Assembly (NCBI GenBank): GCA_045600485.1
Contig: JAZRXX010000033.1
Location: 2,474 to 66,473 of the forward strand
Reading direction: 5' to 3'
Source: Bacteroidales bacterium
Lineage (GTDB): Bacteria > Bacteroidota > Bacteroidia > Bacteroidales > UBA3663
DNA length: 64,000 nucleotides
In this document: piece by piece, positions 32,375-59,899 of the stretch
Layout: each line of letters opens with the position of its first letter
Position numbering within the stretch: position 1 is the stretch's first letter
The notes under the pieces: model-generated
The model's database searches: none
Seen by the model: only the letters and a program-made list of their open reading frames with translations
Told to the model about the DNA's origin: nothing
Program-made: the position numbers and the translations under genes

Positions 32375-33694
32375 ATGAAGAAAAAAACACCAGCTTTCTA
32401 TCGTTATTGTCAAGACATGGCAAGCGATCATCTTTCGTATTATGAACCCGAAGAAATCGAGGCAGCCGTCTTGGATTTGCTTGACATGAACATGTTTGAG
32501 GATGCAGAATATCTTGCAGAACAAGGCATGAGGCAACACCCGAACGACGATACGATGGAAAAGATGGTGATTTGGATTTACCTGCACAACCACAAGGCAG
32601 AACAGGCCGAAGCCATGTTCCAGAAGTATCGCAACGAAAATTCCGACTGGAGCATCCGCATGAGTTTCTGCTTTGCTGCTATGCATGGTCATCCACAAAG
32701 GGCACTCGACAGTTTCGTCAATGCGCTCCGCGATGGGCAGATTGCACCATTGGATTGGATCAACACCATCGACGAAATGTTCGAAGTCTTGCCCATGGAT
32801 GTCTTGTCGCCCTATCTGGTGCAGGTCATCGAGATAATAGATAAAGATGCCGAAACATTGGCCCGAGTCGGCACTATGCTGATCGATGCACTTCGGTTCG
32901 AAGAGGCCGCCAAAGCCATCGAGAAGTCGCTTGATCTGGATGCCTACGACATCTACTCATGGCAGGATCTGTCACGATGCTATCTGCTCATGCAGAACAT
33001 TTCGAAATGCCAGGAGGCTTGTGAATATGGATTGACCATCGACGAGACGAATCCGTTGTTGAGTTTCATCATGGGTTATATCCATTACGAAAGACATGAG
33101 TTCCGAGAGTGCATCCCCTACTTGTGCAATGCACGCAAGTTTGCCGAAGGGCAGATTGATGCACGCAATCTGAACATGAAGGAAGACGAAATCCGGCACC
33201 AGATCGATGTAACCTACGAGATGTTGGGGCTTTCCTATATAGAAACCGAACAATACGACTTGGCCAAGGAGTGTTTCGAAATCATGTGCGAACGTTCACC
33301 CAAAAACCCTATGTCCTGGTTGCATTTGTCCAGTATATACCTGTACGAAGGTGATTTGAACAAGGCCAACGAATTGATCGAACATGCCATTCAGCTCGAT
33401 CCGAAAAACGAGAGTGCAAGATCGTTGCAGGTATCAATACTGACCACAATGCACAAGTTTCCGGAGGCTCTCTCGGCACTCAAAGAGATTCTGCGCCTCA
33501 AGCCCAAGAGTCAGAGCTATCTGGTCGCTTATGCTACTTTGGCGAGCCACTCCGGACTCGACAAAGAGGCCGATGCCGCCTATCGCAAACTGCTCAAGAT
33601 GGGCGCCAAGAGCAAGGCCTACCACCCAATGCTGCTCGACTATTTCCGTAGCATTGGCGACGATGATGCCGTTCGTCAATTGTCCGAATCTTAA
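32375..33694 (+). CDS. Tetratricopeptide repeat protein (cytoplasmic, no signal peptide)
   Basis: 439 aa with repeated about 34 aa helical units carrying A/Y/L spacing (for example YEMLGLSYIETEQYDLAKECFEIM, LSSIYLYEGDLNKANELIEHAIQLDP). Confidence 0.7.
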   Translation: MKKKTPAFYRYCQDMASDHLSYYEPEEIEAAVLDLLDMNMFEDAEYLAEQGMRQHPNDDTMEKMVIWIYLHNHKAEQAEAMFQKYRNENSDWSIRMSFCFAAMHGHPQRALDSFVNALRDGQIAPLDWINTIDEMFEVLPMDVLSPYLVQVIEIIDKDAETLARVGTMLIDALRFEEAAKAIEKSLDLDAYDIYSWQDLSRCYLLMQNISKCQEACEYGLTIDETNPLLSFIMGYIHYERHEFRECIPYLCNARKFAEGQIDARNLNMKEDEIRHQIDVTYEMLGLSYIETEQYDLAKECFEIMCERSPKNPMSWLHLSSIYLYEGDLNKANELIEHAIQLDPKNESARSLQVSILTTMHKFPEALSALKEILRLKPKSQSYLVAYATLASHSGLDKEADAAYRKLLKMGAKSKAYHPMLLDYFRSIGDDDAVRQLSES

Positions 33695-35924: not shown

Positions 35925-37223
35925 TTGGACAATTCCTACAAAAGTATCCTGAAGGCAACGAGTCTGTTCGGCAGTGTGCAGGGACTGAACATTCTGCTCA
36001 ACCTTGTACGCACCAAGATAGTTGCAGTTCTGCTTGGACCAGAAGGCATCGGTCTCAACTCCATCTACAATGAGACCCGCGAGCTGGTTCACGCCTCAAC
36101 CAATCTCGGCATGGACACTGCAGGCGTACGTGGCATCGCTCAAACCTACGAACGCTTGAGCAAGGCCCAATCGGACGAAGAAAGAGAATCCATCTTGCAG
36201 TTGATGGAGAATCAGATCGTCCTGCTGCGCTCGGTGATCCTGCTGCTTGCTGCTCTGGGAACTTTCGCTTGTGTACTGTTGGCTCAACCGTTGTCGTGGC
36301 TCACGTTCGAAGATTTCGAACACACATGGGGCTACGTATTGCTGGCACCTGCTGTTGGACTCACAACTCTGACCTGTGGCGAGATCACCTTGCTCAAGGC
36401 ACTCCGCAAACTGAAGGCAGTTGCTATCGTTTCTGCCATCGACGTTGCCTTGGCCATCCTCGTATCGCTCCCGCTCTATTATTTTTATCGCATAGAGGGT
36501 GTTCTGCCTGCGTTGTTGGCATTTGCTCTCATTCAGTTCATTGTTGTAATCAACTTCTCCTATCGGGCTCATGGTGTCCACTATAACTTTTCGAAGGCAC
36601 TCCTCTCCCAGAGTGTCCCGATGATTGTGCTGGGTATCTCGTTTGCTTTGAGTGGAGTCATCGGACATTGCTCACAGTTGGGCATCCGCTCTTTCATCAA
36701 TCATGTGGATGGTTTGCGGGCTGTGGGCCTCTACAATGCGGGCTATACCATTGCCATGACCTATGGTGCAGTCGGGTTTGCCAGTTTGGATTCCGATTTT
36801 TTCCCCCGTCTGTCGGCTATTTTCAATAATGTCGAGGAACGTCGCATGGCTGTTTGGCGACAAGTCAAGGTTACTGTCGGACTGATTATTCCTTTGGTCG
36901 TTGTCCTGATCATATTGCTCCCATGGCTGTTGCCATTGCTGTTCAGCGACCGATTCAACGATGTTATTCTCATGGCGCAGATTTCGAGCGTCGGACTGAT
37001 CTTCCGTGCTGCCTACTTGCCTGTGGCTTATATACCATTGGCTGCCGGCGATTCCCGCACCTTCCTCGCTCTCGAAACGGTCAGCTACGTCATTCTCTCG
37101 ATTGGCGTTATTCTGGGCTATCACTTGGCTGGTCTGAATGGTGCCGGCATTGGCCTTGTGATCTCGAATGCTGCCGACTTCTTTGTCTCTTTCATCGTGG
37201 CCAAGTCCAAATACAAAGTCTGA
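35925..37223 (+). CDS. Oligosaccharide/polysaccharide flippase (Wzx-like, MOP superfamily)
   Basis: 432 aa with about 12 predicted TM helices. The N-terminus (SILKATSLFGSVQGLNILLNLVRTKIVAVLLGPEGIG) is typical of O-antigen/ECA translocases. The start codon is TTG and there is no nearby in-frame ATG. Confidence 0.7.
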   Translation: MDNSYKSILKATSLFGSVQGLNILLNLVRTKIVAVLLGPEGIGLNSIYNETRELVHASTNLGMDTAGVRGIAQTYERLSKAQSDEERESILQLMENQIVLLRSVILLLAALGTFACVLLAQPLSWLTFEDFEHTWGYVLLAPAVGLTTLTCGEITLLKALRKLKAVAIVSAIDVALAILVSLPLYYFYRIEGVLPALLAFALIQFIVVINFSYRAHGVHYNFSKALLSQSVPMIVLGISFALSGVIGHCSQLGIRSFINHVDGLRAVGLYNAGYTIAMTYGAVGFASLDSDFFPRLSAIFNNVEERRMAVWRQVKVTVGLIIPLVVVLIILLPWLLPLLFSDRFNDVILMAQISSVGLIFRAAYLPVAYIPLAAGDSRTFLALETVSYVILSIGVILGYHLAGLNGAGIGLVISNAADFFVSFIVAKSKYKV

Positions 37224-37438
37224 AACGATAAAAATTAAAAGTTAAAAATTAAAAATTAAAAAATATAAGTTATAAATTAAAACTTAAGTAACTATATACC
37301 CTTTGACCTCATTGTAAATAGTTAGGCACTCACGCAAAGTCCGCTATGGACGCAAAGGTGGCCTCGCAAAGGGAATATTATATATCAATGTCAAATCAAC
37401 TCGCAAGGTTGAAATTCTTTTGATAACGCACATACAAC

Positions 37439-37484
37439 GAAACGCTGTACTACGAATCGGTCGTAGTGCAGCGTTTCTTATTTT
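37439..37484 (+). terminator. Intrinsic terminator (17 bp stem)
   Basis: GAAACGCTGTACTACGA (37439-37455), loop ATCGG, TCGTAGTGCAGCGTTTC (37461-37477), then TTATTTT. It lies about 215 nt downstream of the flippase stop. Confidence 0.6.
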
Positions 37485-37490
37485 GCTCGG

Positions 37491-37923
37491 TCACAAGAAG
37501 ATTTGAAGAATTGAAGACTTATGCTAACCAAAATCTTCTTATCTTCTCCTCTTCTTTGAGGTTATTTATTTATCAAGAATTAGAGAATTTCTGAATTAGG
37601 ATGATTCCTGTAATTCTCATTCATTCCCCAAAAGGAATTAAGAAGAGAAAGAAATTCACGAATTCACTAATTCTTGATTTTTTATTCTCAAGGAAGATTT
37701 GAAGAATTGAAGACTTATGCTAACCAAAAATCTTCTTGTCTTCTCCTCTTCTTTGAGGTTTTTATTTATCAAGAATTAGAGAATTTCTGAATTAGGATGA
37801 TTCCTGTAATTCTCATTCATTCCCAAAAAGGAATTAAGAAGAGAAAGAAATTCACTAATTCTTGATTTTTTTATTCTCAAGGAAGATTTGAAGAATTGAA
37901 GACTTATGCTAACCAAAATCTTC
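37491..37923. repeat. Tandem repeat, unit about 190-196 bp, about 2.2 copies. Each unit is a family A hairpin plus a second hairpin module
   Basis: Units start at 37491, 37687 and 37876, and the last is truncated. The second module has arms ATCAAGAATTAGAGAATTTC / GAAATTC..CTAATTCTTGAT at 37572-37678 and 37768-37866. Confidence 0.85.
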
Positions 37924-38223
37924 AACCTGTAAGGTTACCCTTTCGCCCTGAAAGGGCAATCGCAAAGCGCTATCAGCCCATGGTAAAGCAAAGCGACACC
38001 CTGGGTTTCATAGTAATATGAACATCAAACGCCCTGAAGGGGCAAAAGCCTTACTGAAGGACAATGCTCTATTCTTGTGCGTACAAACGATATTCATGCT
38101 TTTGCCCTTTCAGGGCGTCGGTTTGGCATTCTTAATACCCAGGGTGTCGCTTCGCTTGCCCTGGGCTATGTGCTGGTTGCCCTTTCAGGGCGTTTTCGCT
38201 CAAAACTTCTAACCGTACAGGTT
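37924..38223. repeat. About 300 bp imperfect palindrome with nested arms (four GCCCTGAAAGGGC-type boxes)
   Basis: Pairing arms: 37924-37937/38210-38223, 37944-37959/38177-38192 (perfect), 37992-38006/38138-38152 (perfect), and 38030-38049/38098-38117 (one mismatch). The centre is near 38073. The palindrome ends 10 nt from the TIR gene stop. Confidence 0.85.
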
Positions 38224-38233
38224 GAAATTTCCC

Positions 38234-39328
38234 TTATAATTTATGAAGAATGTAACGAAGTTCGAAATCGGGAGATTCATCTTCGCGGAACAGTTCATAA
38301 TAGCCATCCTTGGTGATGTAGATGGGCTGAGATACCTGCTGGGCCTTGGCTGGAAGATTCAAATGAAAAGTGCCATCGGCTGCAGTCTCGCACTGGTATC
38401 CGGCAATATCGACCGTTGCACCACGCACGGGGTTGCCCAGATCATCGACAACAATGCCCTTGAAATGGGCAAACGTCTCATCGCGCATCAGATCCAGTTC
38501 CAATTGCGTGGACAGTCCAATACCTAACTGCAACGTGGTCTTGATCGTGTCATAAAACGGTGCGGCAAATGAGACTTCGACTGTACCACCACGACGGAAT
38601 CCCGGCACCTCCTGCAACTGAATCTCGACATTGTAGTTGGAATCAGGTAGCGTATATAGCTGACCATCGACCATCAGAGCGCCTTCAAGATGCGGCAAAT
38701 GAGAAACCTGATCATACAATCGGATCGTGGTGGACATTGGCATAATCAGATAGGCTGCTGCAGCCAGGAGGAATGATGTAACCAGAGTTGCAATGGTAAT
38801 GATCGTGTTGCGACGACGACGATGACGGGCATACATCACATCGAAAGGCACACCCATCAATCTGGATACAACCTGGATAAGGGTACGTTCGTCGCCATCA
38901 GCCACTCTGTCGATGCAATGCAGCTCCTGTTCGGGATGCTCTGCCACATAGTCGAGCATATACTTCGGCATACACTCGCGAGGACCATTGCTGTATGGAA
39001 TGCCGTCGATTACAATCGGTATGATCTGATTCAATCGACCATGCTCAATAAAGAACTGCACCTCCTTGCTCACCCACTCGGATTTGGCGGCACGGCGAGA
39101 ACAGATCAAGATGAGATACTTGGAATTCTCGAGGTTGCGATCGATAATCTCCGAAAGCACACCGGTGGTCAAATCGGTGCGATCACGGAATATCGGACGC
39201 AAATAGCGACTCGAAGGGTTGACTGGATTGGGCATGTTGTAGGGCAAATGATAATGCTCCAAACTGTTCTGCAACCAGTTGGCTATCTTCGAATCATGAT
39301 GACTATAGCTAATGAATGCAAGATTCAT
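38234..39328 (-). CDS. TIR domain protein with one transmembrane helix and a C-terminal carboxypeptidase-regulatory-like (beta-sandwich) domain
   Basis: The N-terminus MNLAFISYSHHD...YLILICSRRAAKSEWVSKEVQFF is TIR_2-like, including a Glu in the SxWxxxE position. RHRRRRN is followed by a TM helix TIITIATLVTSFLLAAAAYLIMPM. The C-terminal FKGIVVDDLGNPVRGATVDIAG...AADGTFHLNL...ITKDGYY is CarboxypepD_reg-like. I prefer the ATG at 39328 over the TTG at 39370 in the ORF track. Confidence 0.75.
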   Translation of the reverse strand: MNLAFISYSHHDSKIANWLQNSLEHYHLPYNMPNPVNPSSRYLRPIFRDRTDLTTGVLSEIIDRNLENSKYLILICSRRAAKSEWVSKEVQFFIEHGRLNQIIPIVIDGIPYSNGPRECMPKYMLDYVAEHPEQELHCIDRVADGDERTLIQVVSRLMGVPFDVMYARHRRRRNTIITIATLVTSFLLAAAAYLIMPMSTTIRLYDQVSHLPHLEGALMVDGQLYTLPDSNYNVEIQLQEVPGFRRGGTVEVSFAAPFYDTIKTTLQLGIGLSTQLELDLMRDETFAHFKGIVVDDLGNPVRGATVDIAGYQCETAADGTFHLNLPAKAQQVSQPIYITKDGYYELFREDESPDFELRYILHKL

Positions 39329-39366
39329 GACTTTTCTTGTTTTAAGGTAATACCAAAATACACAAA

Positions 39367-41367
39367 TCAAGGCAGTTCAGGAACGCCCTGTTCACCGAAC
39401 AACGACATCATTCTCTTGACTTCGCCAGCATTACGACGGATATCAGCGTCGTTGGGATCAACCTCCAATGCCCGCTGGATGTAAATGTTGGCTGTTTCAT
39501 ATTCCTTGAGACGGACATAAACATTGCACAAGTGGAGCAGGCGACGGCCCATTTCCTTGTAGAAGATTTTAGGCTCTTTCGCATAGAGTGGCTCCATCTC
39601 CTCCAACGCCAACAAATCGCACTTGAGTGCTGTTTCGTAATCGCGCAGGAAGTAGGCACATTTGCCGATGTTGTAATTGATGTCCGAAAGATTGTCGGCA
39701 AATCGTGCAGCGCCATTCTTCTCGTTCAGGAAGATGGTTCGCGCATTGTCCAGACATTGCAATGAACGATTATAGTCCTTACGTATAATATATAATGAAC
39801 CTAACGAGACAAGGCAATGTGCCAGAAAACGGTTATAGGCCACCGGATTTCGCCGAACAGCCTTGCGATAAAGATGTTCGGCGTTGAGCATAGCCTCTTC
39901 GGCCTCATCGTATTTCAGCTGGATCTTGTAGATTTCGCCCAAAGACTTGTAGGAATAGGCAAGGCGACCTTCATAGACGTAGGGCTTCTGCTTATACAGT
40001 TCTTCGAGTATAGAGATTGACTCCTTGCACATTTCTGCACTCTCGTCGCCCCACTGGTTACGCATAATTGCGGCTGCCTGCGACAGAAGCACGGCATATT
40101 GTGAATCAAGATCCTTGAGCGTAGTCTCAGCACGAAGGCTTCGGAGATCGTTGACACACCTGCGGAAGAAGGCATTGGCCTTAGCTGTGTCGCCCAAGCG
40201 ATTATAATAGAAACCAAGTGTGTTAAAGAACTCGGATTCGTCGCGCAACAACGATAAGGTATCGGAACGAGACCTGCGTATAGAATCCAGACGGGGCAGC
40301 ATGGCTTCGAGCAATGGAAGACCCTCGACACGATTACCGCCACGAGTGAGAGCCACGGCATGATAACATTGAGCGCGATAATAGTTCATGGAATCGCCCT
40401 GCTGTTCGGATGACCAGATCAAGCTCCGGTAAACCCTATCGGCCTCCATGTGTTCGGCATGGCTAAGCAACAATCGGGCATAAACAAGCATATTATAGAC
40501 ATTGGTCGTATCGACCATCGCCAAGTCGTGAATCAGTTTTCCGATCTTCTCATCGACATCATCGCCACCCTGCATGCGCAGCAAATCGGCCTGTCGCAAT
40601 ACGGCATTACGCAGATTCTTGCGTTGGTTATGCAGGGTTCGCTCCGATTCGACCATGGCCGAAGAGGCAGACTTCAGACGATCGATGTTCTTGCTCTGCT
40701 CCGTGAGACGTCCGGCCAGATCCAATTTGTCGTAGGCAGCAATGGCTTTTTCGAAATTGCCATCGCGCACATACGACATGATCTTCTGCTCCTCGGCCGT
40801 GAGGGCAGTCAAATCAAGTTTGACAAAGCGATCAATGTAGTTGTCGATGTTGTCGAGCTTGTTCTCATATTCTTGCTTGAGTGCCTCCAGCTTGGCATCA
40901 TACTCAGCTTTGGTAATCTGCTGTTGCTGGTAATTAAACTCCAAATGTATCTGGTCCTCCTCATATCGGGCTGTGGTCTTTTCGGTAGCATGTCGAACCA
41001 TGTTACGACGAACCTCCATCAACTTCTCGGTCTTGCACAAAAGAATGGAGATTTGCGATTCGCTACCTGTGATGTAAAGGTGGTCCAACGAGTTTTCGTC
41101 GGCAATGGAATACCCGGATTTGATGCATCGACGAATGATGATGCGGTCTCCCGGCTTCAGCTGACGGAATCGGAGCGTAAATTCTCCGTTGGCATCAGAG
41201 ACGGTCGAAGCGGCGTTGGTCACGACAATCTCGACATTCGCAAGAGGAACCTTCTCCATCTTATCATTGTACTCATACACAAAACCCTTCTGAATGGATT
41301 GTCCGAACAGGGTTGTTGCAGACAATGCCATCAGAGTGAGCAATACGATTAGATTTAAGTGTTTCAT
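39367..41367 (-). CDS. Secreted protein: signal peptide + CarboxypepD_reg-like domain + coiled coil + TPR array
   Basis: MKHLNLIVLLTLMALSATTLFG/Q signal peptide. VPLANVEIVV...SDANGEFTLRF is the beta-sandwich motif. A heptad-rich region follows (KAEYDAKLEALKQEYENKLDNIDNYI), then multiple TPR-like units towards the C-terminus. It is a paralogue of 58190-59899. The start is trimmed to the ATG at 41367. Confidence 0.7.
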   Translation of the reverse strand: MKHLNLIVLLTLMALSATTLFGQSIQKGFVYEYNDKMEKVPLANVEIVVTNAASTVSDANGEFTLRFRQLKPGDRIIIRRCIKSGYSIADENSLDHLYITGSESQISILLCKTEKLMEVRRNMVRHATEKTTARYEEDQIHLEFNYQQQQITKAEYDAKLEALKQEYENKLDNIDNYIDRFVKLDLTALTAEEQKIMSYVRDGNFEKAIAAYDKLDLAGRLTEQSKNIDRLKSASSAMVESERTLHNQRKNLRNAVLRQADLLRMQGGDDVDEKIGKLIHDLAMVDTTNVYNMLVYARLLLSHAEHMEADRVYRSLIWSSEQQGDSMNYYRAQCYHAVALTRGGNRVEGLPLLEAMLPRLDSIRRSRSDTLSLLRDESEFFNTLGFYYNRLGDTAKANAFFRRCVNDLRSLRAETTLKDLDSQYAVLLSQAAAIMRNQWGDESAEMCKESISILEELYKQKPYVYEGRLAYSYKSLGEIYKIQLKYDEAEEAMLNAEHLYRKAVRRNPVAYNRFLAHCLVSLGSLYIIRKDYNRSLQCLDNARTIFLNEKNGAARFADNLSDINYNIGKCAYFLRDYETALKCDLLALEEMEPLYAKEPKIFYKEMGRRLLHLCNVYVRLKEYETANIYIQRALEVDPNDADIRRNAGEVKRMMSLFGEQGVPELP

Positions 41368-41434
41368 AGTGTTTATCGGAAAATGCGTCACGACGAATCG
41401 GACGTTGTGTTTATTTTAGAACGAAAATAGAGTT

Positions 41435-42196
41435 CTACAGGATATCGTAAACCTGAAGCAGGTTACTGATCCGAGGCTGATAATCGTTGGCCTTGTCGGA
41501 TTCGCTGTTCCAACCGTCGCCACAATACCAGATGGCCTGACAACCCAAAGACAGGGCTGGCTGAATATCCTTATCGAAGCTGTCGCCGATGACCGTAATA
41601 TCCTTGGCCGGTATGCCTAGCTGTTCGATCGCAATCTGGAAGATCTGCGGATCTGGTTTGCGTACTCCAGCAACGGTACTGTCAACCACCACCTTGAAGC
41701 AACGCAAAAGTCCAAAATCCTGCAATACGGCAGAAAGATTGCCATAGAAGTTGCTGACCAAAGCCAGATCGTACTTCTCGGAGAGGTACTCAACGACCTG
41801 GAAAGCATCGAGGGTACAACGACGTGCATAATCGTAGCAGATACCCGCCATGAAATCTACAAAGTGCTGTATGATCTCAGCCTTTTCCATAATAGGTACT
41901 TCTCCATCGCTGGTCATTCGGAGGGTTCTCTCCAATATATCTTGCGACAGCATCTCCTGCTGGAGCATATAGTCCATCTGGATGCCGATGCGCACCTGCA
42001 TCAACTCAAAGAAATTCTGATCCGGAGTGATGACATTCATCATCGACAGATAGCGCTCTCCGTATATATAAGCCTCGCGGAACTGCTCTTTGGTGATAGG
42101 CAACGATGCTTGGGTGTAGCTATCCCACAGGACTTCGGCCCAATGCTTTCCATTGCTATCAATGGTGGCACCATAATCTAATATCAATCCTTTCAT
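41435..42196 (-). CDS. HAD-superfamily hydrolase with atypical motif I (DYGAT instead of DxDxT)
   Basis: LILDYGATID (motif I), GVRKPDPQIF (motif III Lys) and VIGDSFDKDI (motif IV). Confidence 0.7.
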   Translation of the reverse strand: MKGLILDYGATIDSNGKHWAEVLWDSYTQASLPITKEQFREAYIYGERYLSMMNVITPDQNFFELMQVRIGIQMDYMLQQEMLSQDILERTLRMTSDGEVPIMEKAEIIQHFVDFMAGICYDYARRCTLDAFQVVEYLSEKYDLALVSNFYGNLSAVLQDFGLLRCFKVVVDSTVAGVRKPDPQIFQIAIEQLGIPAKDITVIGDSFDKDIQPALSLGCQAIWYCGDGWNSESDKANDYQPRISNLLQVYDIL

Positions 42197-42199
42197 TTG

Positions 42200-43120
42200 T
42201 TATATAATAGTTCTTTTTTTTACAATTATTATTCCGACAAGAATCCAGACAAATTCACGGATTCGGGTGGCAAAACTGATGCTCACTGCCATAGGCAGCA
42301 GTTCGGGCATCGCTGGCTCAAGTGCTTGCAGAGCCAGAAAAATTCCTCCTTCACGAGTTCCCATCTGAAGTGGGCTGAAGAACAGTATATTGGCAAACAG
42401 ACTGCTGAATGCCACAACAAGATAGGCAGAAAGATAGCTATCCAATATACTGCCGGCAAAGACTGCCTGCATCAGTACCCAGTATTCAGCCACGTTGATC
42501 ACACGTGATGCCAACTCGAGGAGCAAAGCGATACAGAACTGTCGGGGATGTGCCTGCAACAAACCCTGCAAACTGGCAATCCACCCCTTCTTGATGGCAA
42601 AGCGATAAGCAAATACCACTACGAACCCAAGAATAACAAGAACGAGTATCAGAACGAGTGTTTCTGTCTGTCCATCGGCCCAGAGGGCAGAATTCATATC
42701 GGCAAAGAAGAGTGCAAGCACTACTCCGATCAGCCAGAAAACAATGTGACTGAGCACATGCATCATTGCATAGTAGGTGACTGCACTATTGGCTGCTTGC
42801 GGCTGAACGTCGTTGCGCAACTCATAGATTCGCCAAGGCTCTCCACCCAACAACCCAAACGGAGTGATGTAATTGAGCGCATAACCTCCGATGGTGAGCC
42901 GCAGCATTCGGCTGAACGGTATCGTTGACCCGGGGGCGCAACTCCTGACTACATATCCGAAACTGATTGCATTGAACAGATATCCTATGCCCCATACAGC
43001 CACGCAAGCAACCAATACCCAATTCCATTGCAAGATGTTATGCCACAACAGGTACGGATCTGCCTCATAGATCATGACGCCCAATATCAGCAGGCAAACA
43101 ACGAACAGAATCTTTTTCAT
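42200..43120 (-). CDS. Flippase-like / lysylphosphatidylglycerol-synthase TM-domain family membrane protein (UPF0104)
   Basis: Polytopic membrane protein with an ITPFGLLGGEPWR motif. The start is trimmed to the ATG at 43120, which overlaps the upstream stop (ATGA at 43117-43120). Confidence 0.6.
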   Translation of the reverse strand: MKKILFVVCLLILGVMIYEADPYLLWHNILQWNWVLVACVAVWGIGYLFNAISFGYVVRSCAPGSTIPFSRMLRLTIGGYALNYITPFGLLGGEPWRIYELRNDVQPQAANSAVTYYAMMHVLSHIVFWLIGVVLALFFADMNSALWADGQTETLVLILVLVILGFVVVFAYRFAIKKGWIASLQGLLQAHPRQFCIALLLELASRVINVAEYWVLMQAVFAGSILDSYLSAYLVVAFSSLFANILFFSPLQMGTREGGIFLALQALEPAMPELLPMAVSISFATRIREFVWILVGIIIVKKRTII

Positions 43121-44019
43121 CGACCAACCGTTTTTACGATCAGCTGTTCCTGACTCCGCCACAAATAGATCAGCAGTGCGTTGCCTACAAGAATCTCGAC
43201 TGCAAAGTAAATCCATGGCTGCCCCACAATGAGTGCCACACACAACGTGATGGCCCGACAATTGAAGGTGAGGATATTACAATACTTCATGAGTGGACGA
43301 GAACCCGTGACAAGCGAATCGAACGCCGCCGTTCCGAGTATTGCAGAAGCAGATTCTTCATGCCCCATCAAATAACGGCGCAATGTCTGCAAGTGCGGTG
43401 TATATGACTCCTGTGCCAATGTGTAGCCCTTATAGAACCATAAGAACAGCTTATAGAGAGGAGCCTCAGCAAAGCGAAGCTGGCTGTATTCGTTTATGAT
43501 CTGGCTGGAATCATCCAGTTCACTGCCACTCTTGCCATTGACCAGAAAGAGATGGAACTGACGATAATAATCAGCCAAACAAGCCTGATAACGATGGCTG
43601 AGACCAGCCGCTGCTGCAAGAATCCAGATGTAAATTCCCCATTCAGGCATCAGGCGCAAACAGATACTGACATAGATGCAGATAAACCAAATGTCGCCAC
43701 AGGCTCCATCCAGAATACGTCCCAAACGACTATACTGTTTCGTCATGCGCGCCAACTGACCATCGGCACTATCGCAGATATCAGCCATCACCAGCAAGGC
43801 CATGCCAAGCAGATTCAAACGCCAATCAGCAGGATAGAAAAGCAATCCTGCTCCAATGCCCAAGAAGATACTTAGGATCGAGATGAAATTCGGGGTCCAA
43901 CCCAACTTCTCTCCCATCAAAGCCATACGAAACCCCATTGGCCTGTAGAACCACAGGTCGATGGTCTCTTCCACATCGGGATGCTTGAGTGATGCTGCGT
44001 AACGAGGATCCAATTTCAA
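43117..44019 (-). CDS. CDP-alcohol phosphatidyltransferase family protein
   Basis: DSADGQLAR...LD...D is the D-x2-D-G-x2-A-R signature, set in a multi-TM protein. The ORF track start at 44019 is TTG, so the start is uncertain. Confidence 0.8.
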   Translation of the reverse strand: MKLDPRYAASLKHPDVEETIDLWFYRPMGFRMALMGEKLGWTPNFISILSIFLGIGAGLLFYPADWRLNLLGMALLVMADICDSADGQLARMTKQYSRLGRILDGACGDIWFICIYVSICLRLMPEWGIYIWILAAAAGLSHRYQACLADYYRQFHLFLVNGKSGSELDDSSQIINEYSQLRFAEAPLYKLFLWFYKGYTLAQESYTPHLQTLRRYLMGHEESASAILGTAAFDSLVTGSRPLMKYCNILTFNCRAITLCVALIVGQPWIYFAVEILVGNALLIYLWRSQEQLIVKTVGR

Positions 44020-44070
44020 TTTCTTATTGACTTAACTAATAACTATTAGCAAATAACTATTAACTGAAAA

Positions 44071-44844
44071 CTAAAAACTAAAAAACATTTCCCCCATTGC
44101 TTCGGCTGCTTCTGTTCGGCAAATGGAGAAGCTGGGGAAGTCGTTGACATCGATGATAAAGGGTTGTCCATTATCAAGAATCAGATCGACACCGAAAATT
44201 TCCAATCCCAACACCGACCTAACACGTTGCATTAAGTCCGCATATCGGGTATCTGGCCAGCAATGGTCGCCTACGGCATAAACCTTGACCAACGGGCCTT
44301 CGAGATGACGTGTGACGATAATGTCCGTATAACCATCGGCTGCAAGTTCTATGACCCGGCTGTCGGCTTGCAATGGAGTATCGACGCGAAGCACATCGCC
44401 GGGAGTGACACCCCTTGGATGCATGGCCTTGACCCATCCGGGCAACAACTGCTGCAAATCCGGTTCACACTGGAACATCCGGTCTTCTGCCGGTTCGTAG
44501 CTCCAGAATGGAACAACAGGCAATCCCGAAACCTGAAGCATCTCCAAGGTCGTAGATCGGCTTTGAACCGTAACTTGCACAGACGAAGGCCGATTCAGGA
44601 CCACTCCCCCTTGCTGTTCAAGTTTCTGCAAAAGAAGAAGACTCTTCCACCGACGAGCCATACTGATGATGCAACGGCAGGAAGCAAGTTCCGCTGTATG
44701 CGCAGGCAGCTCCTCTTCGCGAATGGTGCAAACCTCTTGACCAGCATCACGCAAGCAATGGGCAACCGCCTCCAGAATGGCTGCATCTTTTGGAACATTT
44801 CCATTGGGCGAATATTCCGTTGCACGATAAATCAAGCCAACCAT
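44071..44844 (-). CDS. ATP-grasp-like protein, possibly inositol-phosphate-kinase (ITPK1)-like
   Basis: 257 aa. The C-terminal GVDLILDNGQPFIIDVNDFPSF resembles the Mg-ATP-binding strand of ATP-grasp enzymes. By memory it also resembles the xIDxNxFPG motif of inositol 1,3,4-trisphosphate 5/6-kinases. Confidence 0.45.
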   Translation of the reverse strand: MVGLIYRATEYSPNGNVPKDAAILEAVAHCLRDAGQEVCTIREEELPAHTAELASCRCIISMARRWKSLLLLQKLEQQGGVVLNRPSSVQVTVQSRSTTLEMLQVSGLPVVPFWSYEPAEDRMFQCEPDLQQLLPGWVKAMHPRGVTPGDVLRVDTPLQADSRVIELAADGYTDIIVTRHLEGPLVKVYAVGDHCWPDTRYADLMQRVRSVLGLEIFGVDLILDNGQPFIIDVNDFPSFSICRTEAAEAMGEMFFSF

Positions 44845-45527
44845 TGCTCTGCTTTTTGTATATCGGACTTATGATCGATGTCCATGACCTGGTCAAATAC
44901 GCTTGCCCGAATGGTGATACCGGCATCGAGCAAAGCGCGCTGGAAGTTTCTCATGCGCGACACTCCTGAGGTCAGGCATTTCTCCAATATCGGAAGGATA
45001 CGCGCTCTATCCATGCCATAAATTCCACCGCTAACCCAAGCCGCTGGGCCCTGATCTGCAAATGCCGTAATGCGCATATCATCGGCCGTACAAACCCACA
45101 GAGGTTTCTCATCGTCCACATAAGGGGTCACGACAAAACGGAAATCGCTGCTTTGCTCAAAATCCTGAACATAATGGGCAAAATCCGCCTCTCGGAAAAT
45201 CGTATCGACGGTTGTGCAGATGAATGGTCCATCGGGCATAATCTGACAAAGAGCAGCGAGACTGTGCATCGAACTGGGCGTGCTCTCGATCAAGACCTGC
45301 AGCACAACGGCAGGATGTTCCTTCTGCCATTCGTTCAGGTAATCCTGCACCTCTTTCATCTGTCGGTTGACGATAACCGAAATATGATCACCGCACTGGT
45401 GCACAAAGATGTCAAGCAGGCGGCCTATCATGGGCTTCCCTGCCAATGGAACCAAAGGCTTGGGCTGGGATATACCCTCCTGGGCCAAACGAGATCCTTC
45501 TCCGGCTGCAATAATGGCAAAATTCAT
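44832..45527 (-). CDS. Nucleotidyltransferase (NTP_transferase family; candidate alcohol-phosphate cytidylyltransferase)
   Basis: MNFAIIAAGEGSRL...KPLVPLAGKPMI is the N-terminal signature. The 3' end overlaps the next gene by 13 nt. Confidence 0.75.
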   Translation of the reverse strand: MNFAIIAAGEGSRLAQEGISQPKPLVPLAGKPMIGRLLDIFVHQCGDHISVIVNRQMKEVQDYLNEWQKEHPAVVLQVLIESTPSSMHSLAALCQIMPDGPFICTTVDTIFREADFAHYVQDFEQSSDFRFVVTPYVDDEKPLWVCTADDMRITAFADQGPAAWVSGGIYGMDRARILPILEKCLTSGVSRMRNFQRALLDAGITIRASVFDQVMDIDHKSDIQKAEQWLA

Positions 45528-58189: not shown

Positions 58190-59899
58190 TCATCGTTCTT
58201 TGACAACTATTCGCCATTTTTCCATCTCCTGGGAGAAATAATCGATAATAGCCTGATTTTCGCCATAAACGGATTTGCACTTGGCGAAGAAGTCGTCCAT
58301 TTCTGCCTCTATCGCCAGAGCATCTTCCCACATCTTGAATTCAGCATAGATGGCATAAAGATTGACCAAATTCATTGTTTTGTACAATAGTTCACCATCA
58401 GGATTGCTTTTGTAGGCCTCTGTACACCATTTAAAAATCTGACGGTGCAACGAAAGGCACAATGCTGTATCATTTTGTTCTTTAGCAAAATCTGCAATTT
58501 GTGAGGTACACTCGTAACGGAGTCTAAGGCGAAACAAGTCTCCATTTGCATTCTGTTCAATCAAATTATTCAATTCGTCCATCTGGCGAAAAGCTTCGTC
58601 GGATGATATGCGTTGTAGAGCATAAGCACAACAGTTAGCATAGCCACGAATAAAATATAGTTCTTCGATGTAAACTTCTGGCGCATCATCGTAGAGAGAT
58701 TGAACCGATGGAATGACAGAGGTGGCATAGTCGTAGCACTCCTGATACTGTCCCATGGAATGATAGTAACGGCACATGGCAACACCCAGTTTGGACATAA
58801 CTCGTTTTGCCTTCATACTGGTGCCCTGCGTCTGTAGGAGCTTTTGGGCCATATCGTTGGCAAGCAATATATACTTATTGCCATTTTCAGAATCGTAAAC
58901 TGTCTGACAATATAGACCGAAAAAACGACACATATTGGCCTTATCCCACCCTTCGGCATGACGTATGGCAATAGGAGTATATGCAAGAATTTCAGCCGTA
59001 TTCATCTGCTGGGAGCAGTCATCGACATAAAGTGATACAGCTGGCAGATAGGTTGTATCGGCATCAGCGACAGACTTGAGCAATCGAGCCGCCTTCTGGA
59101 AATTGGTCGAACCACCTGCAAGTCGATAGGTTATTACCTGACGCTCGATGGACTTGATCAAAGCACTACGCTGTTTTTCTTGCTGCGAACGTGCATTGTC
59201 CAAGGCAGCCTGGTCGAGATCAATCTTGCGGATGTCGGACGACTGATGATTGAATCTTCCCAAATAGTCTGCCTCTTCGTAGGCACGAATAGCTTCATCG
59301 AAGCGTCCTTGGTTGACCAGTTCAACAAGATGCGATTGCTGAGATGTCAATTCAGTCAAATCAATACGCACAAAATGATCCACATACGATTCGAGCATCG
59401 AAAGCTGATGCTGGAACTCACTGTCCAGACGTTTCAAACTGGCTTGAAAAGCCTCTTCCTGCAACCTGGATTGTTTCCAGTCTTCGGCCAGACGGAGACT
59501 GTCTTGCCGATACTGGCGCCGATAGTTGTCGGATGCCAACTGCATGTAGCGCTCCTTCATGCTGCGAATGCGGCTGGAAGGGCAAAGTACCAAACGGAAC
59601 GGCTGAGCTGGACTGATTGTCCATTGTTCGATGGCTTGTGTATTGAATATTTCGTAGCCATTACGTTCTATTCGACGAACCTGAACCGGATCGCCGGCAT
59701 GCATAGTACGAAACTCAAGATTCAGACTACCATTGGCATCGCTGATGACTGAAGGGGCATTACCGACCGATACACTCACACCACTCAACGGCGTGGCAGG
59801 TTGGGCTCCCTGATACTCGACCACTTGTACTTTCTGACTGACCTGCGCCATGCCACAGACGCAGAACAACGACAATGCAACGCTTACAAAATACTTCAT
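58190..59899 (-). CDS. Secreted CarboxypepD_reg-like + coiled coil + TPR-like protein, paralogue of 39367-41367
   Basis: Signal peptide MKYFVSVALSLFCVCGMA/Q. SDANGSLNLEFRTMHAGDPVQVRRIERNGYEI aligns with SDANGEFTLRFRQLKPGDRIIIRRCIKSGYSI of the paralogue. DHFVRIDLTELTSQQSHLVELVNQGRFDEAIRAYEE aligns with DRFVKLDLTALTAEEQKIMSYVRDGNFEKAIAAYDK. Confidence 0.7.
   Translation of the reverse strand: MKYFVSVALSLFCVCGMAQVSQKVQVVEYQGAQPATPLSGVSVSVGNAPSVISDANGSLNLEFRTMHAGDPVQVRRIERNGYEIFNTQAIEQWTISPAQPFRLVLCPSSRIRSMKERYMQLASDNYRRQYRQDSLRLAEDWKQSRLQEEAFQASLKRLDSEFQHQLSMLESYVDHFVRIDLTELTSQQSHLVELVNQGRFDEAIRAYEEADYLGRFNHQSSDIRKIDLDQAALDNARSQQEKQRSALIKSIERQVITYRLAGGSTNFQKAARLLKSVADADTTYLPAVSLYVDDCSQQMNTAEILAYTPIAIRHAEGWDKANMCRFFGLYCQTVYDSENGNKYILLANDMAQKLLQTQGTSMKAKRVMSKLGVAMCRYYHSMGQYQECYDYATSVIPSVQSLYDDAPEVYIEELYFIRGYANCCAYALQRISSDEAFRQMDELNNLIEQNANGDLFRLRLRYECTSQIADFAKEQNDTALCLSLHRQIFKWCTEAYKSNPDGELLYKTMNLVNLYAIYAEFKMWEDALAIEAEMDDFFAKCKSVYGENQAIIDYFSQEMEKWRIVVKER

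Follow-up and report, generated by a model that had tools for sequence, protein, structure and literature searches.

Two adjacent genes on the reverse strand of a gut or rumen Bacteroidales genome, here called geneA and geneB, were analyzed in the context of a 64,000-nucleotide stretch of DNA (the window). The pair, its parts, and a second member of the geneA family are located as follows.

39367 to 41367, minus strand: geneA, ORF from the ATG at 41367 to the stop at 39367, encoding a predicted exported partner protein of 666 aa
40468 to 41367, minus strand: conserved N-module of geneA (approximately aa 1 to 300; signal peptide, sandwich, and helical region), from the HMM survey
39329 to 39366, minus strand: intergenic spacer between geneA and geneB, 38 nt, from the sequence and a terminator scan
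38234 to 39328, minus strand: geneB, ATG at 39328 and stop at 38234, encoding a predicted type II single-pass inner-membrane TIR protein of 364 aa
38849 to 39328, minus strand: predicted cytoplasmic TIR domain of geneB (aa 1 to 160; core, aa 1 to 115), from Pfam, Foldseek, and invariant columns
39062 to 39064, minus strand: codon of Glu89, the putative catalytic glutamate, from its invariance and the alignment with 3jrn
38744 to 38845, minus strand: Arg cluster (RHRRRRN, aa 166 to 172) and transmembrane (TM) helix (aa ~174 to 195) of geneB, from hydropathy and AF2
38237 to 38743, minus strand: predicted periplasmic ectodomain of geneB (aa 196 to 364) with two beta-sandwiches, from AF2 and Foldseek
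58190 to 59899, minus strand: geneA2, 569 aa, an orphan second geneA-family paralogue 19 kb from the pair

The start codons of geneA and geneB match the N termini of close homologues. The original prediction, made from the sequence alone, described two co-directional genes separated by 38 nt with no terminator between them. The ORFs and the spacer agree with this, and a simple scan of the 38 nt found no terminator-like hairpin. The two genes are probably co-transcribed.

The TIR domain expected at the N terminus of geneB is recognized by both Pfam and Foldseek. The Pfam scores over aa 5 to 111 are 49.4 bits for TIR_2 (cut-off, 28) and 41.3 bits for ThsB_TIR (cut-off, 21.2). The structural matches include AbTir (7uxu; TM score, 0.71), SARM1, TIR-1, and the TIR domains of TLRs. 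By sequence, the best match in the PDB is to the 9m0n chain, in its TIR region (E value, 4.9e-5). The core carries an FISYSHxD motif, a conserved BB-loop region (R44, P45, F47, D49, D52, and G56), and W85-x3-E89, and a conserved helical extension spans aa 120 to 160. In total, 111 full-length homologue clusters were recovered. Among 42 aligned homologues, which are 36 to 76% identical to the window protein, there is no variation at S83, W85, V86, E89, or the BB-loop residues. In the alignment with the plant TIR 3jrn, Glu89 falls on the Glu at the catalytic position (SSWCLDE motif), where the original prediction had placed it. From these sequence features, we infer a putative enzymatic TIR of the WxxxE NADase type. 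A conserved Glu is also present in some TIR domains that are scaffolds or use other substrates.

Beyond the TIR domain, geneB contains a single strongly hydrophobic segment (aa 176 to 194; mean Kyte-Doolittle value, 2.13), and AF2 (model pLDDT, 91) joins the Arg cluster and the TM segment into one continuous helix (aa 162 to 195). Family members have 4 to 7 K/R in the 15 residues upstream of the TM segment versus 0 to 2 downstream, and this positive-inside helix is kept in 26 of the 27 that were scanned. The predicted topology, with the TIR domain in the cytoplasm and both sandwiches in the periplasm, fits the positive-inside rule. The Arg cluster followed by one TM helix had been read correctly from the sequence, and the roughly 160 extracytoplasmic residues that were expected amount to 169 after the helix. 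These residues are modeled as one beta-sandwich at aa 198 to 280 and another at aa 288 to 360. The CarboxypepD_reg-like module proposed for the end of the protein stays under the Pfam cut-off (24.4 bits at aa 290 to 332; cut-off, 32.3). In Foldseek, the second sandwich matches the SusC NTE domain (9hfj; TM score, 0.79; 29% identity) and the transthyretin-like domain of carboxypeptidase D (5aq0; TM score, 0.74), so that a SusC-NTE/CarboxypepD_reg-like fold is confirmed for the predicted structure. The ectodomain also matches the tandem Ig-like stalk of 6fwv. In a search of 1.84 billion representatives, the whole two-sandwich ectodomain was found only in the ~365-aa TIR family.

GeneA begins with a hydrophobic segment (aa 4 to 22) in a signal peptide (aa 1 to 22) with predicted cleavage between LFG and QS, which leaves Gln at +1. 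Nearly all geneA-family partners have such a cleavable signal peptide with Gln at +1, and geneA and its relatives are therefore predicted to be exported. This agrees with the compartments proposed originally, in which the TIR domain lies inside the cell and geneA shares the periplasm with the sensor-like part of geneB. In the AF2 model of geneA (pLDDT, 88), a beta-sandwich (aa 24 to 112) is followed by long helices and helical hairpins (aa 113 to 266) and a TPR solenoid (aa 271 to 657). The architecture first suggested, with a signal peptide, a beta-sandwich, long helices, and TPRs, is thus recovered by hydropathy, AF2, and Pfam TPR models that exceed their cut-offs; Foldseek returned generic TPR solenoids as sole matches. 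The N-terminal sandwich gives a weak CarboxypepD_reg match in Pfam (16.8 bits, below the cut-off) and is homologous to the last sandwich of geneB (hhalign probability, 94.8%; E value, 5.6e-8). By fold in geneB (aa 288 to 360) and by homology in geneA (aa 24 to 112), the pair therefore resembles the NTE of SusC/RagA and the carboxypeptidase D domain, with CarboxypepD_reg scores below the cut-off in both proteins; unlike SusC/RagA, neither protein has a TonB box, plug, or barrel. The NTE in SusC is a mobile periplasmic docking domain.

Across the geneA family, identity is highest in the sandwich (40 to 91%) and lowest in the TPR part (15 to 56%). The N-module of about 300 residues carries the motifs QxxQxGxVxEYN and NIDNYIDRF..DLS, and the C-terminal tails beyond it range from none to ~830 residues. 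Some paralogues lack the TPR tail, and one tail contains LRR_5 (BspA-type LRR). The orphan paralogue geneA2 matches the N-module HMM (E = 1e-93) and consists of a signal peptide, the N-module, and a helical C terminus; it matched no Pfam family and no TIR gene adjoins it. Its closest relatives are partners of 612 to 613 aa situated directly after TIR genes at three loci (L006, L007, and L012). GeneA2 is a possible additional sensor subunit.

Synteny of the pair in relatives had been proposed beforehand as a check. Of 27 independent loci, which come from MAGs of Prevotellaceae, Muribaculaceae, Rikenellaceae/Alistipes, and Bacteroidaceae, 26 have an N-module gene beside the TIR gene, and the N-module HMM had 0 matches in control loci totaling 1.55 Mb. 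Either gene can come first, the arrangement is divergent at one locus, and each linked locus has one to three partner paralogues. Spacing between partner and TIR gene varies from a 4-nt overlap to ~190 nt, being 100 nt in the sole divergent locus. Judged from these sequence comparisons, the partner element conserved by linkage is the N-module, with the TPR solenoid excluded, and we propose it as a docking module for the geneB ectodomain. Strict one-to-one coupling is not obligatory, as a TIR gene without a partner (L005/L010) and the orphan geneA2 indicate. A crude mirror-tree comparison of the geneB ectodomain with the geneA N-module gave no coevolution signal (partial correlation, ~0).

A scan of species genomes found at least about 25 full-length TIR-family loci, and none of the matches listed is from a well-known cultured genome of Bacteroides or Prevotella; one MAG carries two pairs. 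In the window and in L001, the genes that flank the pair have housekeeping functions in lipid and envelope biology, and the pair is missing from two relatives that retain the same lipid-gene cluster (L089 and L090). It is also absent from phages and plasmids. The pair is an accessory element with a presence/absence distribution. Compared with the nearest relative, its two proteins show 64% and 76% identity and the flanking genes 64 to 97%; being within the flank range, the pair gives no evidence of accelerated evolution overall. The neighborhoods are heterogeneous (152 Pfam families in 126 neighbors) and PADLOC matches around family loci are sporadic, so there is no clear defense-island signature. 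Against the PADLOC system models, the two proteins gave no more than weak TIR matches. In accordance with the original prediction, the ~7 kb around the pair contain no gene for SIR2/SLOG, a cyclase, STING, or Argonaute, and no ThsA or other Thoeris-type effector is linked to it.

The same TIR subfamily also occurs in an unsplit clade from many phyla (L028 to L084), in which the TIR domain and one TM helix are followed by extracytoplasmic WD40, Sel1/TPR, or RHS repeats. These proteins are 33 to 45% identical to geneB over aa 1 to ~190 and share its helical extension, an Arg/Lys-rich juxtamembrane segment, and a single TM helix at aa ~180 to 200. They differ in their long fused repeat region, in place of which the Bacteroidales family has two short sandwiches and a separate secreted partner, and the N-module HMM found no geneA-type gene near their loci. 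The idea of a Toll-like receptor divided over two polypeptides gains support from these unsplit relatives. However, the part of the partner that is conserved is the N-module, and the TPR tail that was to serve as the receptor's solenoid is the most variable region.

The resemblance to Toll-like receptors also needs adjustment, as geneB alone is closer to the IL-1R layout of Ig-like ectodomains, TM helix, and TIR, and it is the pair that parallels a receptor with its solenoid sensor on a separate chain. In addition, TLR/IL-1R proteins are type I whereas geneB is type II (N terminus inside), its TIR domain has WxxxE and matches bacterial TIR_2/ThsB rather than metazoan receptor groups, and the window geneA has TPR instead of LRR repeats. 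The likeness is one of architecture only, with no sequence sign of common descent beyond the TIR fold. [quoted passage not shown]

With moderate confidence, we favor a two-chain signaling unit spanning the inner membrane, in which sensing by geneA is relayed to a geneB TIR NADase. GeneA would leave the cytoplasm through Sec and lose its signal peptide to signal peptidase I, and geneB would expose its N-terminal TIR to the cytoplasm and its two tandem Ig-like beta-sandwiches to the periplasm. The sandwich and helices of the geneA N-module may dock onto the geneB ectodomain; as the geneA sandwich is homologous to the terminal sandwich of geneB, homotypic pairing is plausible. The fast-diverging TPR solenoid could provide the ligand-binding surface. 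A periplasmic cue, such as a phage or toxin component or a product of envelope damage, might alter the oligomeric state of geneA, which would cluster geneB and bring the cytoplasmic TIR domains into head-to-tail arrays. TIR NADases need such arrays for activity. Once arrayed, the geneB TIR domains would cleave NAD+. A Thoeris-like second-messenger relay would be less likely than growth arrest through NAD+ depletion, because the pair has no conserved gene for a signal receptor beside it.

Another explanation, which we judge rather unlikely yet the most serious rival, is that the pair belongs to housekeeping or stress signaling or assembly at the envelope and not to immunity. The TPR protein would monitor or scaffold outer-membrane or peptidoglycan biogenesis, and the TIR domain would report envelope state through local NAD+/ADPR chemistry or as an oligomerizing scaffold. 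This would suit the lipid and envelope flanks in the window and L001, the genes seen near the pair elsewhere (Patatin and Omp85_2 directly upstream in L006, L007, and L012, TamB upstream in L009, and OmpA and PD40 among family neighbors), the missing systematic defense-island signal, and the SusC-NTE-like fold, a periplasmic protein-docking domain in Bacteroidetes transporters. However, the family looks rare and patchily distributed, with at least about 25 full-length loci recovered, syntenic relatives lack the pair, and the adjoining envelope genes change between loci. Its variable copy number, multiple partner paralogues, and highly variable TPR tail are more typical of accessory or conflict genes than of a core part of the envelope machinery.

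It is improbable that the geneB TIR is instead a non-enzymatic domain for homotypic interaction or scaffolding that anchors a periplasmic TPR complex, comparable to the adaptor-type TIRs of animal TLRs. Foldseek does match the non-enzymatic TIRs TRAM, TLR1, TLR10, and TLR15, and no conserved receptor for a TIR-made signal lies nearby. Nevertheless, W85-x3-E89 and the BB-loop remain invariant at 36 to 76% identity, which is the pattern of NAD-cleaving TIRs, the sequence of the domain fits the bacterial TIR_2 and ThsB_TIR families best, and the NADases AbTir and SARM1 rank among the best structural matches. With the TIRs of Thoeris ThsB, AbTir, and CBASS/Pycsar/SPARTA, geneB shares these two profiles as well as the conserved Glu at the catalytic position and a conserved Trp, which precedes that Glu by four residues. 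GeneB differs from them in its inner-membrane tether, periplasmic ectodomain, and exported partner, and the pair has no ThsA/signal-receptor effector, SAVED, STING, or Argonaute.

Very little speaks for a cytoplasmic defense pair of the Thoeris, TIR-II, or BcTir/BcTpr kind, in which the TPR protein would sense a TIR-made nucleotide or act in the cytoplasm. Besides the ThsB_TIR match of geneB, such a pair would have precedents: Escherichia coli TIR-II has TIR and TPR on separate proteins (PMC11350192), a TIR plus TPR operon, BcTir/BcTpr, provides defense in Bacillus cereus (bioRxiv 10.1101/2023.05.26.542521), and TPR-S is noted as a nucleotide-sensor TPR for the ThsI effector (bioRxiv 10.64898/2025.12.03.692087). 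Together with the 9m0n TIR-TPR chain, whose likeness to geneB rests on the match to its N-terminal TIR, these systems link TIR functionally to TPR, sometimes on separate polypeptides. The TPR-S match of geneA is faint, however (15 bits; E value, 0.03), and far under the 27.6-bit cut-off, and no ThsA-type effector was found. Essentially all geneA relatives have the cleavable signal peptide with Gln at +1, geneB is membrane anchored with its non-TIR part outside, and what the linkage conserves is the sandwich/helix module rather than the TPR region; the cited descriptions of TIR-II and BcTir/BcTpr report no signal peptide or periplasmic location for the TPR protein, which sets them apart. It is hardly credible that the TIR protein is delivered to host cells to interfere with TLR signaling, as a virulence or immune-evasion factor like TcpC/BtpA would be, despite the gut or rumen commensal sources and the resemblance to host TIRs. 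The TIR domain lacks a secretion signal, a TM anchor is predicted to keep it in the cytoplasm of the bacterium, and the same clade occurs in environmental Planctomycetes, Alphaproteobacteria, and Gammaproteobacteria.

The favored two-chain signaling unit is comparable in concept to Zorya (PMC11890865), in which an inner-membrane complex detects envelope events and triggers a cytoplasmic response. Zorya differs in having a MotAB-like 5:2 motor and nucleases without TIR, and it is unrelated to the pair in sequence and structure. The literature searched contained no description of the geneA/geneB pair. A biological role in defense is plausible and is the leading candidate. The pair appears to be a bacterial equivalent of receptors of the Toll/IL-1 type that has so far gone undescribed.

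The two genes that make up the pair lie in the same direction on the minus strand of the window:

geneA, ATG at 41367 to stop at 39367, minus strand: 666-aa ORF, predicted exported partner protein with a beta-sandwich, a helical region and a TPR part
geneB, ATG at 39328 to stop at 38234, minus strand: 364-aa ORF, predicted membrane TIR protein

Their 38-nt spacer holds no terminator-like hairpins in a simple scan, in line with the original prediction of a co-directional pair, 38 nt apart, without an intervening terminator. Alternative, longer starts are available for both genes (GTG at 41391 for geneA and TTG at 39370 for geneB), and the ATG starts agree with the N-termini of close homologues. 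No match to the Bacteroides-type promoter motif TTTG-N17-23-TAnnTTTG was found near the pair, and an Rfam scan of 37000-41600 returned just two sub-threshold, chance-level matches, both in downstream repeats. Directly 3' of the geneB stop lies a palindromic element of ~306 bp (37921-38226), edged by the 17-nt inverted repeats TTCAACCTGTAAGGTTA and TAACCGTACAGGTTGAA and enclosing nested 16-21-nt inverted repeats made of GCCCTGAAAGGGC hairpins. It resembles a MITE or REP-type element and may double as the terminator of the pair. Further repeat regions are located at 37482-37918 and 37215-37284; they include a 196-bp unit in ~2.5 tandem copies (93-100% identical), with one 21-26-nt hairpin per copy, and four AT-rich repeats with 14-nt spacing that adjoin the end of the Polysacc_synt_3 gene.

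The N-terminal TIR domain predicted for geneB was recovered by both profile and structure searches. Residues 5-111 match Pfam TIR_2 (PF13676; 49.4 bits versus a cut-off of 28) and ThsB_TIR (PF08937; 41.3 bits versus 21.2), TIR_2 is present in 111 of 111 full-length homologue clusters, and the PADLOC ThsB models give weak matches (E value of 1.5e-4 or worse). In an AF2 model built from 42 homologues (pLDDT 91), residues 1-160 adopt the flavodoxin-like TIR fold, with BB-loop-region residues 52-55 as the sole low-confidence stretch, followed by a continuous helix (162-195) and two beta-sandwiches (198-280 and 288-360). Foldseek matches of the TIR domain in the PDB comprise AbTir (7uxu; TM 0.71), SARM1, TIR-1 and the TIR domains of TLRs, including TLR15 and TLR1. 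In NAD+-cleaving TIR domains, the catalytic glutamate lies on helix alpha-C, usually in a WxxxE motif. In geneB, W85 and E89 form such a motif, and E89 aligns with the glutamate of the SSWCLDE motif of the plant TIR domain 3jrn, a position established as the catalytic one in SARM1, plant TIR domains and AbTir. The placement of the glutamate of SEWVSKEV at the NADase catalytic position therefore holds. Across the 42 homologues (36-76% identical to the window protein), S83, W85, V86 and E89 are invariant, as are F5, S7, Y8, H10 and D12 and the BB-loop residues R44, P45, F47, D49, D52 and G56. Judged by these residues, the domain carries the signature of a putative enzyme.

A Kyte-Doolittle scan of geneB detected one hydrophobic segment (176-194, mean 2.13), preceded by the RHRRRRN cluster, which agrees with the single TM helix proposed earlier. 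For the CarboxypepD_reg-like module proposed beyond this helix, the fold stands and the Pfam assignment does not: residues 288-360 form a transthyretin-like, seven-stranded sandwich that matches the SusC NTE (9hfj; TM 0.79, rmsd 1.8, 29% identity) and the transthyretin-like domain of carboxypeptidase D (5aq0; TM 0.74), but CarboxypepD_reg (PF13620) scores 24.4 bits at residues 290-332, below its cut-off of 32.3. The two sandwiches in tandem resemble Ig-like stalks of surface proteins (6fwv).

The geneA product begins with MKHLNLIVLLTLMALSATTLFG/QS, a stretch that shows the n-, h- and c-regions typical of Sec signal peptides and carries Gln at position +1 of the cleavage site. This residue, Gln23, is invariant in an alignment of 23 homologues (alignment A2), and the succession of K/R, hydrophobic residues and A/G before Q recurs in nearly all partner proteins of related loci. 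Bochtler and colleagues are said to have described, in 2018, a Q-rule for Bacteroidetes, by which signal-peptidase-I substrates carry Gln at +1; the geneA pattern is consistent with export under this rule. The AF2 model (pLDDT 88) consists of a helix (2-20), a beta-sandwich (24-112), long helices (113-266) and an alpha-solenoid of paired helices (271-657). The C-terminal half scores above the Pfam cut-offs for TPR_2, TPR_1 and TPR_12 (46.3, 43.4 and 40.8 bits), and Foldseek returns generic TPR solenoids only (the TPR domains of LGN, OGT and SPY), identifying geneA as a TPR repeat protein. The signal peptide and TPR solenoid of the original prediction were thus both recovered; its CarboxypepD_reg-like sandwich fails by Pfam score (16.8 bits versus the cut-off of 32.3) but is recovered by hhalign, which finds it homologous to the last geneB sandwich (probability 94.8%, E value of 5.6e-8). 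The predicted topology places the TIR domain in the cytoplasm; the geneB ectodomain, together with the whole of mature geneA, would lie in the periplasm. To our knowledge, the characterized bacterial TIR systems all act in the cytoplasm.

The geneB family comprises 111 full-length homologue clusters of ~365 aa (37-99% identical), and its named members are TIR domain-containing proteins of Bacteroidales or Alistipes MAGs. Scanning one genome per species yielded at least 22 full-length loci from Prevotellaceae, Muribaculaceae, Rikenellaceae/Alistipes and Bacteroidaceae MAGs, most of them of rumen or gut origin; one MAG holds two pairs. Partners were sought with an HMM of geneA residues 1 to ~310, covering the conserved N-module (signal peptide, beta-sandwich and helical region). 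In 26 of 27 independent loci, a partner gene immediately adjoins the TIR gene, the sole exception being L005/L010, so the synteny expected among Bacteroidales is borne out. By comparison, no N-module ORF occurs in 1.55 Mb of control sequence, of which 0.75 Mb surrounds other TIR-TM proteins and 0.80 Mb surrounds HAD homologues. The same link appears from the geneA side, where a 29%-identical homologue is immediately followed by the gene of a 368-aa TIR protein. Both gene orders are found. The two genes overlap by as much as 4 nt or lie up to ~190 nt apart (100 nt in the single divergent locus), and TIR genes have one to three paralogous partners. When the geneB ectodomain was compared with 1.84 billion representative proteins, its complete two-sandwich form was found only at the C-terminus of ~360-390-aa proteins, i.e., the geneB family, or as fragments; the remaining matches are to the generic sandwich alone. 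The geneB ectodomain and the geneA N-module are specifically coupled genetically, and we consider the architecture and linkage of the pair very probably correct.

Identity among geneA homologues falls along the protein, from 40-91% in the sandwich to 25-77% in the helical region and 15-56% in the TPR part. The linked, conserved element of geneA is its N-terminal sandwich-plus-helix module; the solenoid tail is variable and the distribution of the pair accessory. Some partners are the N-module alone (262-351 aa); in others, a tail extends the protein to as much as 1132 aa, and one such tail includes a BspA-type LRR. This is in keeping with a docking module that stays constant and an attached recognition region that varies. 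A weak mirror-tree test on 16 loci, in which geneB ectodomains were compared with geneA N-modules under control for the TIR domain, gave a partial correlation of ~0 and hence no support for co-evolution.

The window holds a second gene of the family, geneA2 (58190-59899, minus strand), which encodes 569 aa with the signal-peptide junction CGMA/QVSQ, matches the N-module HMM at an E value of 1e-93 and has a helical C-terminus without a Pfam match. Its neighbours are genes for a carboxyl transferase and an alkaline phosphatase rather than a TIR protein, and its closest relatives are 612-613-aa partners encoded after the TIR genes of L006, L007 and L012. Another TPR protein of 439 aa (32375-33694, plus strand) is encoded on the strand opposite to the pair, ~4.5 kb away from it. 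It does not match the N-module HMM and is therefore placed outside the geneA family.

The next-best relatives of geneB, 405-1526 aa in length, align to it over residues 1 to ~190 only, at 33-45% identity, and come from Muribaculaceae, Clostridia, Synergistetes, Planctomycetes, Verrucomicrobia, and Alpha- and Gammaproteobacteria. A single, positive-inside hydrophobic TM segment directly follows the TIR domain in 45 of the 46 clade members scanned, mostly at residues ~175-225, and 44 of 45 have 5-9 K/R in the 15 residues before it. Beyond the TM segment lie long regions with WD40 propellers, Sel1/TPR or RHS repeats. The clade is therefore consistently membrane anchored with an extracytoplasmic repeat domain, and the Bacteroidales family is its version with the long recognition domain as a separate exported chain. 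Two loci (L033 and L041) each carry two TIR-TM-repeat genes in tandem.

The pair is embedded in housekeeping genes in the window (VTT/DedA, TGT, Polysacc_synt_3, HAD, LPG_synthase_TM, CDP-OH_P_transf, NTP_transf_3 and Lnb). Its nearest relative, L001, retains the upstream gene cluster, which is also kept in two more distant metagenome relatives (L089 and L090) that lack both geneA and geneB. Across 22 loci the neighbours are heterogeneous (152 Pfam families among 126 proteins), and the exported geneA family is the sole conserved neighbour of geneB. Some other neighbour families recur: proteins with RyR domains in 7 of 27 loci, patatin (by itself or together with Omp85_2) in 5, and extra TIR genes in 4. 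PADLOC and Pfam scans of the 126 neighbours gave sporadic matches, namely two DpdF-like helicases, phospholipase models corresponding to the patatin genes, and extra TIR domains, and one restriction-modification pair is found in L002; this is insufficient for a defence-island association, and the pair does not demonstrably sit in defence islands. Carriage by phages or plasmids was likewise rejected, with no relatives in IMG/VR and INPHARED and TIR-only, partial matches without a full-length relative in PLSDB. The pair belongs to the accessory genes and, on evolutionary timescales, is mobile.

The RyR-domain proteins adjoin the pair in L002, L011, L013, L021, L025, L085 and L170. They include short ~95-aa proteins, a C39_2-like peptidase-RyR fusion and proteins of ~760-810 aa, in places together with M48, PrsW, SDH-type or trypsin-like proteases or patatin, and these loci may represent an extended version of the system. 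Separately, the TIR genes of L006, L007 and L012 are immediately preceded by a patatin plus Omp85_2 gene (~5.7-7.9 kb), and a TamB gene is found upstream of the TIR gene in one locus (L009:3418-7953); both have outer-membrane biogenesis or lipid-related functions.

The HAD gene adjoining geneA (41435-42196, minus strand) encodes a protein 97% identical to its L001 homologue (L001:5123-5884), compared with 64% for geneA and 76% for geneB. Accelerated evolution of the pair was rejected because the other flanking genes are 64-84% identical; within the pair, only the TPR part (56%) lies at the low end. The HAD gene is the outlier, and its identity could reflect recent recombination or transfer of this single gene. 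It belongs to a five-gene cluster (41435-45527, minus strand; NTP_transf_3, a 257-aa protein without a Pfam match, CDP-OH_P_transf, LPG_synthase_TM and HAD) that looks like a polar-lipid head-group pathway. The cluster recurs in many metagenome loci (L089-L164), some with apparent CDP-OH_P_transf-HAD and NTP_transf-257aa fusions.

On balance, we favor a model in which the pair senses the periplasm and activates a TIR NADase. In this model, geneA would dock on geneB in the periplasm, possibly via the homologous sandwiches, and a periplasmic ligand on the TPR region, or a perturbation of the envelope, would alter oligomerization, so that clustered TIR domains turn into active NADases. Because no signal receptor is conserved nearby, the output would likely be NAD+ depletion and growth arrest, as for the self-contained TIR effectors of other defence systems. 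That this response serves defence is put forward tentatively.

A role in envelope-homeostasis signaling or as a scaffold would suit the housekeeping and envelope genes around the pair but sits poorly with its patchy distribution and variable paralogues, and appears unlikely. It is improbable that the TIR domain is purely scaffolding, given that its WxxxE motif and BB-loop are invariant. The known cytoplasmic systems share part of this architecture. Thoeris has a ThsB-type TIR protein, as which geneB qualifies by its ThsB_TIR score, but also an adjacent ThsA-type effector, which is absent beside geneB. As the original prediction had noted for SIR2/SLOG ThsA, no such effector (SIR2/SLOG, Macro-TM and others) lies within ~7 kb in the window, and none recurs among the 126 neighbours of the 22 loci. 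TPR-S (PF20308) scores 15.3 bits on geneA, below its cut-off of 27.6, and geneA is predicted to be exported. With the signal peptide, the sub-threshold TPR-S match and the missing ThsA-type gene, the Thoeris, TPR-S and cytoplasmic TIR-plus-TPR readings were rejected; a cytoplasmic Thoeris, TIR-II or BcTir-Tpr-like pair, being at odds with both the signal peptide and the TM topology, is very improbable. A host-directed effector can practically be dismissed, as the TIR domain is predicted to be tethered in the cytoplasm.

TIR domains, TIR NADases and TIR-plus-repeat proteins are known in bacteria (PMC9153377, PMC7075850, PMC7159879), as are defence pairs of a TIR and a TPR protein (PMC11350192; bioRxiv 10.1101/2023.05.26.542521). 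A survey of TIR defence in E. coli remarks that bacterial TIR systems seem to lack the TM and LRR features of TLRs (PMC11350192). In the literature outside subscription journals, we found no description of a bacterial TIR-TM-ectodomain family, of this Bacteroidales pair, or of a bacterial TIR domain split from its repeat domain by a membrane. [quoted passage not shown] In contrast, geneB is of type II, its ectodomain consists of two beta-sandwiches, and the TPR solenoid resides on a separate exported protein. The split TLR-like layout suggested previously is retained as a TIR-TM protein with a separate exported solenoid; the resemblance is one of architecture only.

A broader and more doubtful reading of the periplasm-sensing model is that bacteria have true transmembrane TIR receptors: a multi-phylum clade with a TIR NADase inside, one TM helix, an extracytoplasmic recognition domain and NAD+ cleavage activated by clustering, of which the Bacteroidales form is modular. 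The cues could be phage adsorption or ejection, contact-dependent or secreted toxins, or envelope damage. In the modular form, one invariant geneB chain would accept interchangeable secreted TPR or LRR sensors, the geneA paralogues including geneA2, through docking of homotypic transthyretin-like domains. If true, this would be the functional equivalent, in prokaryotes, of TLR/IL-1R plus co-receptor signaling and the first TIR immune sensor facing outward instead of into the cytoplasm. Should the pair instead be an envelope-homeostasis module, it would provide the first link of TIR/NAD+ chemistry with the periplasm. If functional, the pair, taken with its fused TIR-TM-repeat relatives in many phyla, would mean that receptor-type TIR signaling across a membrane exists in prokaryotes, and it would offer a tractable system for the activation of a TIR NADase by extracytoplasmic ligand binding. 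It would also represent a new class of envelope surveillance in abundant gut and rumen Bacteroidales, which may bear on phage therapy, interbacterial antagonism and the evolutionary origin of TLR/IL-1R-like receptors.
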